A DNA stretch of 64,000 nucleotides from Dehalococcoidia bacterium (GTDB lineage Bacteria > Chloroflexota > Dehalococcoidia > Lucifugimonadales > Australimonadaceae). A program made the translations under genes and the position numbers. The notes under the pieces are model-generated. The model was not told the DNA's origin. It did no database searches and saw nothing but the letters and a program-made list of their open reading frames with translations. The stretch spans positions 1,223,588 to 1,287,587 of the forward strand of contig OZ244812.1 in assembly GCA_965220205.1 (NCBI GenBank), written 5' to 3'. Shown here one piece after another: positions 10,033 to 63,651 of the stretch (its first letter is position 1; every line of letters starts with the position of its first letter).

Positions 10033-11357
10033 GAGTCGGCATCATCGGCGGAGGCGCCGCGGGACTCGCGGCCGCGTACGAGCTGGGAGCGCGCGGCCAC
10101 ACGGCGGAGGTCTTCGAAGGCGCGCCGTTCCTGGGAGGCCAGGCCTCGACGTTCGACGTGGGCGGCGCCCCCATCGAGCGCGGGTATCACCACCTCTTCC
10201 GCAGCGACACGGCCATGGCCGAGCTCATCGACGAGCTCGGCCTCGGCCATCGGTTGAAGTGGATCGATTCGAACGTCGGCTACTTCGCCGACGGACGTCT
10301 CTGGCGTTTCACATCGCCGTCCGATCTCCTGCGCTTCCGTCCGTTGCCGCTGGTCGATCGGGTCCGCTTGGGCGTGACGACGCTGCGTCTCCAGCGCCGG
10401 ACCGAGTGGCGTTCGCTCGAACAGCAGACCGCGACCGAGTGGGTCAGGCAGCACATGGGCGAGCGCGTCTACCGGGTCATCTTCGAGCCGATGCTGCGCG
10501 GCAAGTTCGGCGCGTATCACGACCAGATCAGCATGGCGTGGCTCTGGAACAAATTCGCCTTGCGCACCGCGTCGCGGGGCGAGGGCTTGCGCGGACGGTT
10601 CAAGGAACAGCTCGGCTACCCCACCGGAAGCTTCGGCGAGATTTTCGATACGCTCGCCGAGCACATCCGGCGACAGGGCGGCAGCGTTCACCCCAGCTCG
10701 GCAGTGCGCCGCGTCATCGTGACGGACGGACGCGCGACAGGCCTCGAGGTCGCCGTCGGAGGAGGGGCGCCCGAGCAGCGGCTCTACGACGCAGTGCTCG
10801 CGACCGTGCCCTCCTACGTGTTCCCGCGTCTCGTGGAGGGCCTGCCCGCCGACTACGCCGGCATGCTCGCCGACAAGACCTACCTGGCGGCCGTCCTCGT
10901 AGTCCTCGTGCTCGACCGGCCGCTCAGCCCTCACTACTGGACCTATGTGGGCGACCGGTCGCTGCCGTTCCTCGGCATCATCGAGCACACCAATCTCATA
11001 CCCGCGGAGAACTACGGCGGCGGGCACATCGTCTACCTGGCGAACTATCTCGATCGCGACGACCGGCTGTACGCCATGAGCGCGGACGAGCTGTACCGCG
11101 AGTACATCCCGCACGTCCAGCGCATCAACCCCGCGTTCAACGAGTCGTGGGTGAAGGAGTACCACCACCACAAGGTGGACGCCGCGCAGCCGATCGTCAC
11201 GCGCGGCTACTCCGAGCGCATCCCCTCCCACCAAACGCCCATCCCCGGGCTCTGGCTCGCCAACACGACCCAGATCTACCCGGAGGACCGCGGCACCAAC
11301 TACTCGGTCCGCATGGGCCGCCAGGTGGCGGCCATGATAGCGGCCGGGCAACCCTAG
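10029..11357 (+). CDS. FAD/NAD(P)-binding oxidoreductase (amine-oxidase / phytoene-desaturase-like)
   Basis: N-terminal Rossmann motif MRVGIIGGGAAGLAAAYEL. It overlaps the upstream stop by 4 nt. Its stop TAG 11355-11357 lies in the CTAG at the MITE boundary. Confidence 0.8.
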   Translation: MRVGIIGGGAAGLAAAYELGARGHTAEVFEGAPFLGGQASTFDVGGAPIERGYHHLFRSDTAMAELIDELGLGHRLKWIDSNVGYFADGRLWRFTSPSDLLRFRPLPLVDRVRLGVTTLRLQRRTEWRSLEQQTATEWVRQHMGERVYRVIFEPMLRGKFGAYHDQISMAWLWNKFALRTASRGEGLRGRFKEQLGYPTGSFGEIFDTLAEHIRRQGGSVHPSSAVRRVIVTDGRATGLEVAVGGGAPEQRLYDAVLATVPSYVFPRLVEGLPADYAGMLADKTYLAAVLVVLVLDRPLSPHYWTYVGDRSLPFLGIIEHTNLIPAENYGGGHIVYLANYLDRDDRLYAMSADELYREYIPHVQRINPAFNESWVKEYHHHKVDAAQPIVTRGYSERIPSHQTPIPGLWLANTTQIYPEDRGTNYSVRMGRQVAAMIAAGQP

Positions 11358-11559
11358 GGAACCTCTGAATAGCTCCGTCCCATCCGTTCGCCCTGAGCCC
11401 GTCGAAGCCTGTCCTGAGCCTGTCGAAGGGGGTCCCACGAACGGACTTGCCTGCTTCCCATCCTCATCTTCCTCCCCCGTTCTGGCCTCCTCCCCCGCGG
11501 GGGAGGATTGAGGAGGGGGCCTGCTGAGAGCACCAGCTCGTTGTTCAGAGGATTCCTGG
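11354..11559. mobile_element. MITE family A copy (about 206 bp), no coding capacity
   Basis: Ends are CTAG-GGAACCTCTGAATA ... TTCAGAGGATTC-CTGG. Internal modules (G-type 11385-11445, H-type hairpin 11486-11519) recur at 63436-63651 in the inverse orientation. Confidence 0.75.
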
Positions 11560-11640
11560 CAGGCTTCCGACCTACGACGTCCGCAGCGCTGCTATCATCG
11601 CCAACTGACCCCAGAACACCTCGCGAACAGGAGCCCAGCC

Positions 11641-18040: not shown

Positions 18041-18095
18041 CGAACGCCCGTTTCGCGCCCGGCCCATGGCTCCTTCCTCACGGCCTCCGCTCTTG

Positions 18096-18287
18096 CCTCC
18101 TCCCCCACGGGGGGAGGATTGAGGAGGGGGCCGCCGCCCCTCCGTCATTCCCGTGCCCCGACACGGGAATCCATGCCCCTTCCCCCACCGACCGCCCGCC
18201 GCGGTCTGACCTCCTCCCCAGACCATTCCTCCTCCCCCACGGGGGGAGGATTGAGGAGGGGGGAACCTTCGTTCAGAGGTTCTCTAG
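18096..18287. repeat. truncated MITE family A copy (right end only) with two H-type hairpin modules and one P-type module
   Basis: H modules at 18096-18130 and 18228-18263, a P module at 18143-18177, and the right end TTCAGAGGTTCT-CTAG at 18272-18287. Confidence 0.7.
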
Positions 18288-20837: not shown

Positions 20838-20873
20838 CTGGGGCCGCTTCCAAACAGGCGCCCTGTAGTCCGT

Positions 20874-21125
20874 CCTCCTCCCCCGCCACGGGAAGAGGAT
20901 GCCCTCAGTGACCCGGCAACGGCCCCGATGGCCCGGCCTCCTCCCCCGCCACGGGAAGAGGATGCCCTCAGTGACCCGGCAACGGCCCCGATGGCCCGGC
21001 CTCCTCCCCCGCCACGGGAAGAGGATGCCCTCAGTGACCCGGCAACGGCCCCGATGGCCCGGCCTCCTCCCCCGCCACGGGAAGAGGATGCCCTCAGTGA
21101 CCCGGCAAGGGCCCCGATGGCCCGG
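20874..21125. repeat. tandem repeat, 63-nt unit x4
   Basis: Units start at 20874, 20937, 21000 and 21063. Units 1-3 are identical and unit 4 has one substitution (ggcaaGggcc). Confidence 0.95.
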
Positions 21126-21183
21126 CCTCCTCCCCCACGGGGGGAGGATTGAGGAGGGGGGAGCTTGTTCAGAGTTTCCCTAG
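21126..21183. repeat. H-type hairpin module plus MITE family A right end
   Basis: CCTCCTCCCCCACGGGGGGAGGATTGAGGAGGGGGG followed by TTCAGAGTTTCC-CTAG. The CTAGGAGG at the end provides the AGGAGG preceding ATG 21197. Confidence 0.7.
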
Positions 21184-23565: not shown

Positions 23566-23826
23566 TGATCCGTTCGCCCTGAGCCCGTCGTTGACCTCCT
23601 CCCTAGTGGGGGAGGATTGAGGAGGGGGCCGCCGCCCCTATCGTCATTCTCGTGCCCGACACGGGAATCCACGCCCAGTGTCGTAACTATGACATGAACC
23701 CGTTGCGTGCACGCCATCCCATCCTCTACCCTGGTCCCAACGCCCAGCACCGACCGGGAGCCCTCCGGTCTGGCCTCCTCCCATCTGGCCTCCTCCCCAC
23801 GCTGCGGGGGGAAGATTGAGGAGGGG
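23566..23826. repeat. cluster of MITE-type modules (G fragment, H, P, second H-like)
   Basis: G fragment at 23570-23590, H at 23595-23628, P at 23641-23676, and an H-like module at 23789-23826. Confidence 0.65.
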
Positions 23827-23852
23827 AGCCGTCCAGCCCGTCCCCAGAGGAG

Positions 23853-23882
23853 AAATGTCCCCGAATGTCACCAAATGCCGCC
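23853..23882 (+). promoter_or_regulatory. three phased 10-nt units (AAATGTCCCC GAATGTCACC AAATGCCGCC) spanning the start codon of the HTH gene
   Basis: Same unit type and phase as the iteron sets of the MITE core modules. ATG 23865 lies inside unit 2 and GAGGAG lies at 23847-23852. Confidence 0.5.
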
Positions 23883-24266
23883 CCTGAAAACAGCGTAGCC
23901 CTCTCGCCCCGCCAGACCGCCGCCCTTCCCTACATCGCCTCCGAGCCCAACCTCTCCGAAGGCGCGCGGGCCGCGCAGATTGATAGACGCACCCTCACGC
24001 GATGGATGCAAGAACCCGCCTTCCGCGCCGAGCTCGAACGCGTCCGCCGCAACATCAGCGACCTGGCATTCTCCGAGCTCGAAGGGTTCACCCTCAAAGG
24101 CGTCATCCGTCTTGTGCAGCTCCTCGACGACCCCGACTCCACCGTCAGACACCGCGCCGCCAAGACTGTCATCTCGATATCCATCGCCGTGCGGCAGGAC
24201 AAGGAGATCCGCCGCCAGCTCGAGACCATCGACAACGCGCTCATCATGCTGAAGGCGCAACGATGA
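23865..24266 (+). CDS. small helix-turn-helix DNA-binding protein (phage/mobile-element type N-terminal HTH)
   Basis: LSPRQTAALPYIASEPNLSEGARAAQIDRRTLTRWMQEPAFRAELERVR fits the HTH pattern seen in small terminase-like or excisionase-like mobile-element proteins. The assignment is by pattern only. Confidence 0.55.
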   Translation: MSPNAAPENSVALSPRQTAALPYIASEPNLSEGARAAQIDRRTLTRWMQEPAFRAELERVRRNISDLAFSELEGFTLKGVIRLVQLLDDPDSTVRHRAAKTVISISIAVRQDKEIRRQLETIDNALIMLKAQR

Positions 24267-24649
24267 GGAACGCCGTCCGGCTCCTCGAACGCCGCCTCGC
24301 CTGCCTCGTCGCCCAGTCCGCCCTCGAACCCATCGTCGAGGACTACCTCGACCGCTGGTGCATCGCCGTCGAGCAGGGCGATCGGCCTCCCGACGTCTTC
24401 GACCTCGTCCACGCCGCAACTGCCGAACGCGTCCCGATGCTCAACGCCGGCGGCCTCGTCTCCTACATCGAGCAGTGCGCCGACAACGACCGCGTCCCCG
24501 ACTCCCGAAATATCATCCAGACCATCGTCCACGGCCACGCCCAACGCTACTACTTCACCAACCACGCCAAGACCTGCCGCTGCCCTGCTCGTATGCCCCT
24601 CATCATCGACTACTCCCCCTACGACGATGACCATGACCATGACAACTGA
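24263..24649 (+). CDS. hypothetical protein, translationally coupled to the HTH gene
   Basis: ATGA overlap at 24263-24266. 128 aa with an acidic His/Asp tail (DDDHDHDN). No recognised family. Confidence 0.45.
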   Translation: MRNAVRLLERRLACLVAQSALEPIVEDYLDRWCIAVEQGDRPPDVFDLVHAATAERVPMLNAGGLVSYIEQCADNDRVPDSRNIIQTIVHGHAQRYYFTNHAKTCRCPARMPLIIDYSPYDDDHDHDN

Positions 24650-24812
24650 TGTCCCCTCCCGTTATCCCCCGCCCCCGTTTCGTCATTCCGGCGCCCCAGC
24701 TGGAATTCAGGGGTGGGGGGAAGGCGCCCCTCAACCCGAGGCGCGGCGCAACGAGTCGGCCCGAGCCGAGGCGTGGCCTGTCGCCGCCTTGGATTCCCGA
24801 CCGGACCACGAA

Positions 24813-24945
24813 GCAATGTCCCAAAATGTCCCAAAATGTCCCGGTTTAGAAGAATTTTGCTCCGCTCCTACTCGTAAACTCGTGCAATCTGCGAGTGGAC
24901 GCACTGCGCCATCTTGGGACAATCTCCGCCAATTCGCGGCGTTCT
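24813..24945. other. diverged copy of the iteron-inverted repeat-iteron core module
   Basis: GCAATGTCCC AAAATGTCCC AAAATGTCCC at 24813-24842; TACTCGTAAA at 24869-24878; hairpin ACTCG/CGAGT at 24878-24896; GCGCCATCTT GGGACAATCT CCGCCAATTC GCGGCGTTCT at 24906-24945. Confidence 0.6.
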
Positions 24946-25026
24946 ATAGCTGTTTACTGGTACTTTGACGGTCATGCGACAGATGGAACGCCCCCAGGTT
25001 CCCAGCACAGCGAGGTAGGCTGGTCT

Positions 25027-37707: not shown

Positions 37708-37992
37708 TAGGATGGCCGTGGCCGTGCTAGACGGGGAGCCAGCGGTGCCCTGCACCCGAAATCCGCTTCAGCGGGGTTGAATTCCTCCTCTAGGGTCGGT
37801 CCCATCACCACTGGGCCGGAAGGGGTATTGAGAGCCGGGCCCTGCGCGGCGGAGTCCTGCGAACCCCGTCAGGTCCGGAAGGAAGCAGCGGTAAGCGGAG
37901 CGCTCCGGGCGCCGCAGATCAGCCTGGTTTGAATCCCTTCCAATGGCTTACGTGATGGGTCCCCTTCTCAACAGGAGGTGCACGGCCACGCT
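37708..37992 (+). ncRNA. ffs: signal recognition particle RNA, large (Alu-domain-containing, Bacillus-type)
   Basis: Domain IV core CCCGUCAGGUCCGGAAGGAAGCAGCGGUAAG lies at about 37864-37894. The 5' Alu-type GCCGUGCUAGACGGGGAGCCAGCGGUGCCCUG is present. The terminal helix 37717-37726 CGTGGCCGTG pairs with 37981-37990 CACGGCCACG. Ends are approximate to about 10 nt. Confidence 0.85.
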
Positions 37993-54152: not shown

Positions 54153-54712
54153 CTGGGTGTGGCTCCAACAGAGGTTGTTGGCCATTCGGGCATCTCCTCT
54201 CTCGTGCTCGCTGGCGCACGGGCGGGCTGGCGCACGGGCGGGCTGGCGCACGGGCGGGCTGGCGGGGTTACAGGCAAGGGTAGCGAGGTGGGCGCCGCCG
54301 ACGCGGCGCGATAGGGCGTGGATTCCCGTGTCGGGGCACGAGAATGACGGCGGGTGAGACGGAATTGAACGGAAATGGGCCAAAATGGCCGGGAATCGGC
54401 CCAAATCGTGAGGTTTTTCACTCGTAAATGTAGGGGGTTTACGAGTGGACGGGCGAAATAGTGGGACATTCTGGGACATTTTGGGACATTTACTCGTAAA
54501 TCGGGCCAGCGCCCGGCGCGCCAAGCCCTGTGGGTTCGAGTGCCCCCCTTCGACGGGCTCAGGGCAGGCTTCAACAGGCATGGTAGAGGTTGGGAGGCGT
54601 TGGGGGGAGGGGCAGATGTCGCGCGCTGGGCTGGAATACCCCTCGTCCAGGTGGGGGAGGAGGCAGGGCCGGCCTCCCGGTTGTAAACAACGTGTCTGGG
54701 AACTACACCTGG
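54153..54712. mobile_element. MITE family B copy with CTGG/CTGG flanks
   Basis: CTGG at 54153-54156 and 54709-54712. Terminal inverted repeats are GTGTGGCTCC and GGGAACTACAC. It is colinear with 60093-600 and carries the core module 54361-54500 and a 16-nt tandem repeat at 54210-54267. Confidence 0.8.
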
Positions 54713-60092: not shown

Positions 60093-60600
60093 CTAGGTGT
60101 AGTTCCAGAGAGGTTGTTGGCGATTGGGCGTCCCCTTTCTCATGCTTGGCCGACGAATGGACGGGCAGCTGGGGTTGTAGACAAGAGCGGCGAGGTCCGC
60201 CGACGCAACGCGAGGGGGCGTGGATTCCCGTGTCGGGGCACGAGAATGACGGAATTCGGGGCATGGGGATGACGGCAGGTGAGACGGAATTGAACGGAAA
60301 TGGGCCAAAATGGCCGGAAATCGGCCCAAAACGTGAGGTTTTCCACTCGTAAATTGCAGGGTTTACGAGTGGAGGGGTCGAAATAGTGCGACATTCTGCG
60401 ACATTTTGCGACATTTACTCGTAAATCGAGCGGGCGGCCCAGCACGCCAGGCCACGTGGGTTCGAGTGCCTCCCTTCGACGGGCACAGGACAGGCTTCAA
60501 CAGGCATGGTAGGGGTTGGGAGGCGTTGGGGCGAGGGGCGGATGTCGCGGCGGGGCCGGCCTCCCGGCCGTACACAACGCGCCTAGGAAACTACATCTAG
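60093..60600. mobile_element. MITE family B copy with CTAG/CTAG flanks
   Basis: CTAG at 60093-60096 and 60597-60600. Terminal inverted repeats are GTGTAGTTCC and GGAAACTACAT. It carries the core module 60286-60425. The right-hand CTAG contains the stop codon of the minus-strand gene 60597-61556. Confidence 0.85.
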
Positions 60601-62909: not shown

Positions 62910-63056
62910 CATGGGGAGCCTCTGAACAAGTCGCTGATGCCCTCAGCAGTGGCGGAAGGGAGAGACCGGGAGCCCCCTCAATCCGTTCGTGGAACCCCCT
63001 TCGACGAGCTCAGGGCGAACGGATGGGGACGGAGTTATTCAGAGGTTCCCCGTAGG
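62910..63056. mobile_element. short MITE family A copy, degenerate ends
   Basis: GGGAGCCTCTGAACA ... TTCAGAGGTTCCCC with an internal G module at 62985-63025. The flanks (CATG/GTAG) do not match each other. Confidence 0.55.
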
Positions 63057-63435
63057 TTGTTCGACAGACGAGGGGCCTCATCCCTGTGTACCCGTGTTTG
63101 GCGCGGGCACGACGACGGGGCAGAGGGGCGTGACGTGAGATTCGGCGGAAACGGACCGGAATGACACGGCGAATCACTCGTAGATTGCATCGGTTTACGA
63201 GTGGCCGGCGAGAGATATTTCTTCCAAGCGGTCTCATTTGGTCTCTTTTGGTCTCATTTCTCCTTCGGGTCGAGCCGGACGCCCGCGTGCCGGGCTGCCG
63301 CGCAGAGTTGGGCCATTGGGGACAGTGTAGGAGGCGAGGGGACGTTCGAGGAAGGGGCGGGTGTCATAGGGGGCGGGGCGAAGTCCCCCTTCTCCGCGGT
63401 GGTAGAAGGCCAGAGGGAAAAGGAGACGGTTGCAC
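63057..63435. repeat. degenerate MITE family B-like body lacking its left terminus
   Basis: It starts at AGGTTGTT, which matches 60111-60118 of the 60 kb copy. It carries the core module 63140-63259 and is bounded on both sides by family A copies. Confidence 0.55.
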
Positions 63436-63651
63436 CTAGGAAACCTCTGAGCAACATGCTGATGCTCTCAGCAGAGCGGAGGTTCCCCCCTCCTCAATCC
63501 TCCCCCCGTAGGGGAGGAGGCCAGAACGGGGAGGAGAGTGAGGACGGGAAGCAGCCAAGTCCGTTCGCGGGACCCCCTTCGAAAGGCTCAGGACAGGCTT
63601 TGACGGGCTCAGGGCGAACGAATGGGGCGGAGCCATTCAGAGGTTCCCTAG
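63436..63651. mobile_element. MITE family A copy with CTAG/CTAG flanks
   Basis: CTAG-GAAACCTCTGAG ... TTCAGAGGTTCC-CTAG. It is colinear with 11354-11559 in the inverse orientation. The right-hand CTAG contains the stop codon of the minus-strand acyl-CoA dehydrogenase gene. Confidence 0.8.

Follow-up and report, generated by a model that had tools for sequence, protein, structure and literature searches.

A small-terminase-like protein of Dehalococcoidia whose recognition helix covaries with three phased repeats at its own start codon

We analysed a 64,000-nt stretch (the window) of the genome of a sponge-associated Dehalococcoidia bacterium of the SAR202 group (GenBank assembly GCA_965220205.1, contig OZ244812.1, positions 1,223,588 to 1,287,587 of the forward strand), in which two small overlapping genes, ORF1 and ORF2, form a cassette that opens with three directly repeated 10-nt units lying across the ORF1 start codon. 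ORF1 is, by profile and by predicted fold, a small-terminase (TerS)-like helix-turn-helix (HTH) protein. Among related loci, the three units change together, and the variable bases at their heads covary, position by position, with residues of the predicted recognition helix of ORF1. This covariation is strong indirect evidence, drawn from sequence comparison, that ORF1 reads the 10-nt units directly and in a base-specific manner. Arrays of the same kind also lie in gene-less elements, most of them placed before host genes, and we lean towards a regulatory role for the system. A literature search found no published description of such an arrangement of cassette and arrays.

Results

The repeat units change in concert and covary with the recognition helix

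We compared 48 loci from species-representative genomes, and 57 related loci in total for the counts of arrays and leaders. About 45 of the 57 carried three units at the same place with an exact 10-nt spacing. Unit 1 is non-coding, unit 2 supplies the start codon of ORF1, and unit 3 the codons for residues 4–6. The units are mostly headed by ATG; GTG, TTG, CTG and AAG occur as variants in unit 1 or unit 3 of some loci. The five bases that follow the ATG vary among loci and are alike inside one locus. When unit 1 was compared with unit 2 of its own locus, 3.69 of the five head bases were identical, as against 2.30 after shuffling, and none of 5000 shuffles reached the observed value. The same is seen among close relatives, in which near-identical leaders accompany different heads: TGTCACC in all three units of L049, and TGAGACC in all three units of L050 and L058.

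A test for covariation between the recognition helix and the repeat head, which had been proposed when the cassette was first noticed, was strongly positive. The head type tracks the residues that flank the invariant T43-L44 of the helix, with a partial Mantel r of 0.48 when the C-terminal backbone was controlled for and of 0.41 when residues 13–37 were additionally controlled for; in either case, 0 of 2000 permutations reached the observed correlation. Residues 40, 41, 42 and 45 are the variable positions within an otherwise invariant stretch (residues 33–59) and, in the structural model described below, would occupy the N-cap, +1, +2 and +5 positions of the predicted recognition helix. Counted over 44 loci, the pairings of residue and base are position-specific. 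T40 goes with T3 (16/16 loci) and G40 with G3 (9/9); R42 goes with C4 (27/27), M or I at residue 42 with T4 (8/8) and S42 with G4 (6/6); M45 goes with A5 (13/13) and T45 with a base other than A at position 5 (23/25); K41 goes with C7 (11/11) and R41 with A7 (30/33). Base 6 is C whatever the residues (43/44). These pairings suggest that residue 40 reads base 3, residue 42 base 4, residue 45 base 5 and residue 41 base 7. The ORF1 of the window has D40, R41, R42 and T45 at these positions.

Equal pairs of head and helix recur in backbones that are only ~58% identical (AKS-M with TGAGACC, and TKR-M with TGTCACC). Moreover, the type has switched at single chromosomal sites: between the window and L058, where both cassettes follow a DUF5671 gene, and between L049 and L060, where both lie between deacetylase and helicase genes. 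We considered two other sources of the covariation. The first, a contact of the helix with the peptide at the N-terminus, was rejected. L008 and L060 have the same peptide, MLQNVT, from different DNA heads that go with different helices, so the link is to the DNA and not to the peptide; the same heads, in addition, are followed by the gene-less arrays and by unit 1, which is non-coding. Transfer of the 5′ end of the gene as a block is unlikely, since the stretch that separates the units from the helix groups with the backbone clade. Given the strength of the covariation, the initial annotation of this stretch was well founded in proposing a protein that binds three phased sites and is probably autoregulatory.

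ORF1 is a conserved small-terminase-like protein

Both genes of the cassette proved to be conserved as coding sequence, in keeping with the initial annotation. The database contained 95 ORF1 homologues, nearly all of 129–135 aa, from Chloroflexota, Dehalococcoidia and SAR202 metagenome-assembled genomes (MAGs), many of them sponge-derived; among the 48 loci there were up to four cassettes per genome. The ratio of nonsynonymous to synonymous substitution rates (dN/dS) was 0.27–0.45 for ORF1 and about 0.45 for ORF2, the range over both being 0.27–0.47. In 42 of the 48 loci, the same overlap joins ORF1 to ORF2, which is sometimes lost or truncated (L049, L058 and L060). Its conserved features are C14, W32, PD, C72, H90 and TCxCPAxRPL, together with an acidic tail. 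It matched nothing in Pfam, PHROG, NCBIfam or PADLOC, and a fold search gave no match at E < 1; none of the PADLOC defence-system models was matched.

The suspicion that the HTH is of the phage type was borne out by profile and fold searches. Against PHROG profiles, the best match of ORF1 was phrog_2538, a terminase small subunit (E 1.5e-6), and two weaker TerS PHROGs were also matched. Pfam gave sub-threshold HTH and HEAT matches only, with no TerS model matched, and a profile search of the PDB sequences found no TerS. The AlphaFold2 model of the monomer, with a mean predicted local distance difference test (pLDDT) score of 87, is all-helical: helices at residues 15–25, 30–36 and 41–48 are followed by long helices, with 30–36 and 41–48 forming the predicted HTH and 41–48 the predicted recognition helix. 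The best PDB fold match was 2ao9, a phBC6A51 prophage protein (E 0.02; template modelling (TM) score 0.36–0.44), and Sf6 gp1 was also listed. Against BFVD, the top match had an E of 4e-5 and a TM of 0.58, and ten of the named matches were annotated as 'Terminase small subunit'. A profile search of the ORF1 superfamily returned 11,841 cluster representatives; distant members had TerS PHROGs as their best matches in 10 of 10 sampled cases, with E values down to 2.8e-16.

In three distant members of the superfamily (P0158, P0235 and P0168), the predicted N-termini consist of 3–5 long tandem peptide repeats before the HTH, so that the DNA around the gene start, just before it or across it, is tandemly repeated too, and its period is longer. 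The TerS branch to which ORF1 belongs may be characterised in general by such 5′-terminal repeats.

Two other roles for ORF1 were considered and found no support. An excisionase-like role, which the initial annotation had put forward, does not agree with the absence of an integrase from the 57 neighbourhoods or with a fold that is TerS-like and not Xis-like. An iteron-controlled replication origin does not agree with the lack of a Rep-like gene, with the lack of replication-protein matches for ORF1 and ORF2, or with the chromosomal, syntenic position of the loci.

Layout of the cassette in the window

All features described when the cassette was first noticed, including the repeat set that spans the ATG at 23865 and the coupling of ORF2 through an ATGA, were verified at their coordinates (Table 1). 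The similarity of the repeats goes beyond chance, as had been supposed: AATGTCCC occurs seven times in the window against 1.0 expected, a count that 0 of 100 shuffles reached, and the 30-nt triplet pattern has four matches against 0 expected. A period-10 scan of the window found four gene-less triplets, at 24.8 kb on the plus strand and at 54.46, 60.39 and 63.23 kb on the minus strand. Near-identity with the units at 54 kb had been claimed for both sets at the cassette. The set at the start codon is degenerate and matches TGTCCC in unit 1 alone.

The motif RTGACA-N9-TTGCGY-N18-TACCCT lies ~118 nt upstream of the ORF1 start in 49 of the 57 loci and is a putative promoter. In the window it is found only at the cassette (23689) and in the gene-less element E4 (63367, minus strand). 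A strict scan for sigma-70 promoters and terminators over 23.5–25.1 kb returned nothing. If the motif is a promoter, the arrays would lie at about +60 to +90 in the loci of the genome collection and further downstream in the window, because a repetitive extragenic palindromic (REP) unit is inserted in the leader there; the shorter leaders of the genome collection do not have this insert.

Table 1. Coordinates of the cassette and of the gene-less elements in the window (SD, Shine–Dalgarno)
Feature	Coordinates	Strand	Description
Promoter-like leader of the cassette	23689..23732	+	ATGACA-N9-TTGCGT-N18-TACCCT; putative promoter
REP-type insert in the 5′ leader	23793..23829	+	GGGGGGAAGATTGAGGAGGGG family; member of repeat family D2
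SD-like sequence	23847..23852	+	GAGGAG, directly before array 1
Array 1	23853..23882	+	AAATGTCCCC GAATGTCACC AAATGCCGCC; three 10-nt units with heads ATGTCCCC, ATGTCACC, ATGCCGCC; covers the ORF1 start codon
ORF1	23865..24266	+	133-aa TerS-like HTH protein; start is the ATG of unit 2
ORF2	24263..24649	+	128-aa helical protein; ATGA overlap with ORF1
E1 set A	24813..24842	+	GCAATGTCCC AAAATGTCCC AAAATGTCCC; TGTCCCA heads; 164 nt after the ORF2 stop
E1 palindrome	24868..24898		CTACTCG-N17-CGAGTGG; family consensus CCACTCGTAAAC..TACGAGTGG
E1 set B	24905..24945	-	10-nt-phased opposite-strand units, e.g. AAGATGGCGCA, AGATTGTCCCA
E2	54362..54497	-	set A 54462–54491 (TGTCCCA x3), palindrome 54419–54447, set B 54362–54410
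E3	60287..60425	-	set A 60387–60416 (TGTCGCA x3), palindrome 60344–60371
E4	63139..63367	-	leader 63324–63367, SD-like GGAG, set A 63229–63258 (TGAGACC heads), palindrome 63176–63204, set B 63139–63175

Gene-less elements carry related arrays, mostly before host genes

The four gene-less elements of the window, E1–E4, have a common layout of three units (set A), a 15–25-nt spacer, a palindrome of the form CCACTCGTAAAC-N9/10-TACGAGTGG, and three to five opposite-strand units with mixed heads (set B). The palindrome aligns in E1–E4 and also in E5 and E6, two elements of related genomes. E5 lies after the L058 cassette and has a leader and two arrays (TGCTACA in three units, and TGGC(G/C/A)CA); E6 is divergent from the L059 cassette. 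The promoter-like leader and the SD of the cassette are carried by E4 and E5 and not by E1–E3 or E6. Each of the six elements precedes the next gene in the same orientation; the genes concerned are PolyA_pol, Band_7 (E2; start 54014, minus strand), dienelactone hydrolase (E3; start 60056, minus strand), Rieske/LigXa (E4; start 62830, minus strand), aldo-keto reductase and Rieske protein. With a seventh element, in L037, the count is 6 of 7. This arrangement fits one of two earlier suggestions, that the gene-less copies carry the operator of the family next to host genes. The other, that they are internal-deletion derivatives of the cassette, is not simply so: the elements carry a palindrome and an inverted array that are missing from the cassette, while E4, and E5 in L058, do share its promoter-like leader, SD and units.

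The heads of the gene-less arrays are drawn from the same repertoire as those of the cassette arrays. From the residue–base pairings, the D-R-R-T helix of the window is predicted to prefer TG-T-C-(not A)-C-A, as found in E1 and E2 (TGTCCCA) and in E3 (TGTCGCA). E1, set A included, is identical in the one 96%-identical strain examined, and set A of E2 (54462–54491) reads AAATGTCCCA AAATGTCCCA GAATGTCCCA on the reverse complement. Between E2 (TGTCCCA) and E3 (TGTCGCA), every unit differs at the same single head position, a concerted change in an otherwise near-identical element. Because the inverted arrays sit on the other strand, recognition of duplex DNA is favoured.

E2 and E3 (54331–54429 against 60256–60354), together with their flanking modules, are 86–93% identical over ~340 nt, at a constant offset of 5925–5926 nt; the genes between them are unrelated. 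The element in L037, which is from another SAR202 lineage, occupies L037:4500–4840 on the minus strand. There, a gene-less cassette leader (GTGACACC..TTACGCG-N18-TACGCT) is followed by GGAGAGAAATGAGCACGAATGAGCAGAAATGAGCCA, and inverted ATGAGCAC-type units lie ~110 nt further on; the element is divergent from a cassette without a start array. This cassette has an ARS-T helix, for which the residue–base pairings predict a TGAGCCA head; a unit with that head closes the divergent leader, 1.3 kb from the cassette, in what is a single case.

As a candidate RNA hairpin, the palindrome was conserved in sequence and showed no compensatory change, and no Rfam family was found at the E elements. A hidden small ORF in these elements was rejected, as the palindrome is crossed by different frames in E4 and in E5. 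A scan of metagenome and viral contigs for the palindrome returned unrelated low-GC terminators beside tRNA genes, or nothing.

Cassette neighbourhoods and TerL-like genes

The initial annotation described the cassette as bracketed by two unit sets. This is not a general property: no second set was present within 6 kb in the 48 other loci, and the downstream set of the window (24813–24842) is part of the separate gene-less element E1 and not a second cassette boundary. Co-occurrence with a recombinase, which had been proposed as a further check, was not seen. No recombinase, integrase or transposase family was common to the neighbourhoods examined, no integrase was present in the 57 loci, and one IS481-type gene lay 3 kb from the cassette, in L059 only. 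No terminal inverted repeats were found; the two cassette sets are direct, and the heads of set A and set B differ. With regard to a tRNA or att-site context, the 64-kb window contains no tRNA gene. The cassettes stand in conserved host synteny across many MAGs, and their position differs among related genomes.

Within 6 kb of the cassette, 21 of the 48 loci have a 556-aa gene resembling that of the large terminase subunit (TerL; phrog_2, E 4e-35), on either strand and with variable cargo between. This TerL-like gene is intact and 72–91% conserved. It was found neither in the 64-kb window nor in the 4–10 kb of flank examined around the cassettes of the six closest relatives. The cassette module and the TerL module have been duplicated as separate, sharply bordered units inside one genome, where paralogues resemble each other more than they do orthologues. 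Genes for portal, capsid or tail were absent from the surroundings of every cassette and TerL copy examined, no structural phage gene lay beside two divergent TerL paralogues, and in the IMG/VR viral contigs neither ORF1 nor the TerL-like protein had a relative.

The single 3.2-Mb chromosome OY764542.1 (L036, L061 and L062) has at least five TerL-like paralogues of 53–100% identity, each examined copy being solitary among host genes. In one genome, two TerL-like copies have 91% DNA identity, the homology beginning exactly at a 147-nt element and ceasing at the stop codon. This non-coding 147-nt element stands before every TerL copy (L001:7802–7948 and 20 other loci, for example L017:2953–3100 on the minus strand) and is 88–98% identical across genomes, more conserved than the TerL protein itself. 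It contains GTGTGACAC..TTGCGC, which is the promoter-like motif of the cassette, a hairpin CTGCGG-ACGAG-CCGCAG, and a terminator-like GCCCCCTC..GAGGGGGC with TTTCT, an arrangement like that of a phage late promoter whose short leader is terminated. The leader had no match in Rfam, and it showed no covariation, the element being too conserved. Between the cassette and the TerL-like gene, L004, L016, L002 and L052 have toxin–antitoxin-like cargo, namely BrnT/BrnA-like, ribbon-helix-helix (RHH)/CopG-like and DUF2442/DUF4160 pairs and a YopA-like gene; such gap cargo is typical of a hot spot or an island.

Discussion

We propose that the ORF1–ORF2 module descends from a phage pac/TerS unit. ORF1 would recognise the three 10-bp-phased repeats over its own ribosome-binding site and start codon, as well as matching triplets elsewhere, and each paralogue or orthologue would have its own specificity through helix residues 40, 41, 42 and 45, reading head positions 3, 7, 4 and 5, respectively. 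Several subunits of an oligomer would then bind the DNA from a single face, within roughly +60 to +90 of the predicted transcript, and the ORF1–ORF2 operon would be down-regulated. E1–E4, with their array, palindrome and inverted array, would serve as targets in trans before host genes. We regard autoregulation, together with action in trans on the gene-less arrays, as the most likely output, with somewhat more speaking for it than against it.

Several points weigh against this proposal. The covariation counts are inflated by shared ancestry, only ~6–10 of the type switches being clearly independent. The start-codon array of the window does not fit the code of its own helix (C7 with R41), so autoregulation in this genome may be weak; its units look like a decayed array of the TKR-M type. 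A subclade with the ARS-T helix (L030, L037, L039 and L041–43) has no array at the start codon, and the gene-less element in L037 is directed into a convergent gene at its 3′ end. As sites for a repressor, the arrays are unusually placed, well downstream of the promoter-like motif. Finally, base-specific reading is not the rule in the TerS family, given that the DNA-binding domain of SF6 TerS has little sequence specificity for pac DNA (PMC4737164).

The binding step would be the same, and the output different, if the arrays served DNA packaging, a possibility that we hold to be real and appreciably less probable. In that case, an ORF1 oligomer on the arrays, acting as in pac recognition, would recruit a TerL-like ATPase-nuclease to cut and translocate the DNA; capsids would come from elsewhere in the genome or from a helper phage (as for a satellite, a gene transfer agent (GTA) or lateral transduction), and the gene-less elements would be extra entry sites. 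The homology and fold of ORF1 point in this direction, as does the TerL-like gene, which is intact, conserved, multicopy and close to the cassette in many loci. Every TerL copy is preceded by the promoter-like motif that it has in common with the cassette and by a terminator-like hairpin, which recalls a phage late operon. Packaging also has the closest known arrangement on its side, namely the SPP1 pac site, whose direct repeats cover the promoters as well as the beginning of terS (PMC4737164). As in SPP1/SF6 G1P, ORF1 has an N-terminal HTH followed by a putative helical oligomerisation region, and the repeats lie over the start of its own gene. Unlike in these phages, ORF1 has no phage context and is present in several chromosomal copies per genome, the window has no TerL, and the three 10-bp units come with a residue–base code, a coupled ORF2 and gene-less arrays beside host genes. 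Packaging is made less probable by the absence of portal, capsid and tail genes near the cassettes and TerL copies examined, by viral contigs that have no relatives of either protein, by the lack of a TerL-like gene in the window and near the cassettes of its closest relatives, and by a host synteny that is conserved across MAGs, unlike that of decaying prophages. Known GTAs, furthermore, package DNA without sequence specificity.

We consider it improbable that the sets are the ends of a mobile element, that is, sites for a transposase or recombinase, with ORF1–ORF2 as cargo and the gene-less copies as deletion derivatives resembling miniature inverted-repeat transposable elements (MITEs). Four gene-less copies within 64 kb, in a genome rich in mosaic REP-like repeats, would suit such an element, and so would the leader, SD and units that E4 and E5 share with the cassette, the variable position of the cassette, the close likeness and sharp borders of within-genome paralogues, and the toxin–antitoxin cargo nearby. 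However, second sets are missing around the other cassettes, there is no consistently nearby transposase or integrase, set A and set B are not mutual terminal inverted repeats, and the cassette has neither the palindrome nor set B. The covariation ties the units to the helix of ORF1 itself and not to an external recombinase. A device acting at the level of RNA is likewise unlikely. In it, the three units, whose ATGs fall one in each reading frame, would work in the mRNA, possibly as a binding site for translational autorepression; alternatively, RNAs made from the gene-less elements could pair with, or titrate, a factor that acts on the cassette mRNA. The units do overlap the SD and the start codon inside the predicted 5′ untranslated region, and transcription of E4, E5 and the L037 element is conceivable from the promoter-like leader that they have. 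Yet the residues that set the specificity belong to the recognition helix of a classical HTH, and the same unit type is found on the opposite strand in set B, which fits duplex DNA and not a single RNA strand; the lack of an Rfam match, of compensatory change in the palindrome and of a conserved frame through the E elements is also at odds with an RNA device.

Other known systems share parts of the arrangement. Lambda gpNu1, which is also a small terminase subunit and has a winged HTH at its N-terminus, binds three R sites in cosB beside its own gene; these sites are 16 bp long, non-contiguous and not 10-bp phased, need IHF, and lie within a full cos site with cosN cleavage. ORF1 is like gpNu1 in being a TerS-type HTH protein with three repeats at its own gene, and unlike it in the contiguous 10-bp phasing. 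Lambda Xis, a winged-helix protein of ~72 aa, binds cooperatively to three phased direct repeats, X1-X1.5-X2, together with integrase at attP/attR, whereas the cassette is without an integrase in all 57 loci and has a different fold context. The likeness to type II toxin–antitoxin operons lies in the two small ATGA-overlapping genes, the first encoding an HTH protein with repeats over its own expression signals, in the several insulated paralogues per genome, in the occasional loss of the second gene and in the presence of other toxin–antitoxin pairs nearby. In contrast to these operons, ORF2 has no toxin family or fold, ORF1 is TerS-like and not of the RHH, AbrB, Phd or HTH-Xre type, and gene-less operator arrays stand before host genes. 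Phage satellites (SaPI/PICI and PICMI) and GTAs also have a chromosomal terS without a full phage and a recognition site at or in the terS gene; unlike satellites, the cassette has no integrase, replication or interference genes and no viral-contig relatives, and its host synteny is conserved. Like MITE and REP elements, finally, the E elements are short, gene-less, intergenic, multicopy and palindromic and reside in a repeat-mosaic genome; they are distinguished by variable arrays that match the binding repertoire of a protein family, and neither terminal inverted repeats nor a partner transposase was found for them.

The DNA recognition by small terminases is a long-standing puzzle, the best-studied DNA-binding domains being almost non-specific. 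The natural variation described here yields a residue-to-base code for a TerS-type HTH, with about ten natural specificities and convergent re-use of the same pairs. A phage packaging module appears to have been retained for a long time, in several insulated copies, by an uncultured marine lineage, with matching arrays before metabolic genes. Either phage parts would have been domesticated as a regulatory network, or the sponge symbionts would have a DNA-transfer system that has escaped recognition. We offer as a speculation, and an unlikely one, that SAR202 sponge symbionts keep a 'terminase-only' mode of DNA targeting, in which TerS-like subunits with a simple, evolvable code would each mark arrays of their own (3 x 10 bp), both at the gene of the subunit and at gene-less elements before host genes, and would guide TerL-like ATPase-nucleases, themselves multicopy, to these chromosomal sites. 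If this were true, such a system could be a means of dispersed, sequence-specific gene transfer or lateral transduction, or a new mobile or defence module, and not a prophage remnant.

Other features of the window

Mosaic intergenic repeat modules occur in the window at 11354–11560, 18081–18274, 21124–21162, 23584–23639, 54282–54623, 60184–60549 and 62980–63651. Examples are CCTCCTCCCC..GGGGAGGATTGAGGAGGGG, GTCATTC(C/T)CGTGCCCCGACACGGGAATCC and CCGTTCGCCCTGAGCCCGTCGAAG..GTCCTGAGCC; their order varies, and they are also found inside the cassette leader. At 20861–21175, just upstream of the DUF5671 membrane-protein gene, lie four tandem 63-nt units (75–100% identical, in a 126-nt register) that end in a GGGGAGGATTGAGGAGGGG module and are crossed by spurious ORFs on both strands. 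At least three tandem 16-nt units (CGGGCGGGCTGGCGCA) are located at 54203–54264, between E2 and the Band_7 gene. The window also encodes the bacterial large signal recognition particle RNA at 37722–37985 on the plus strand (RF01854, 179.8 bits, E 6.5e-30).

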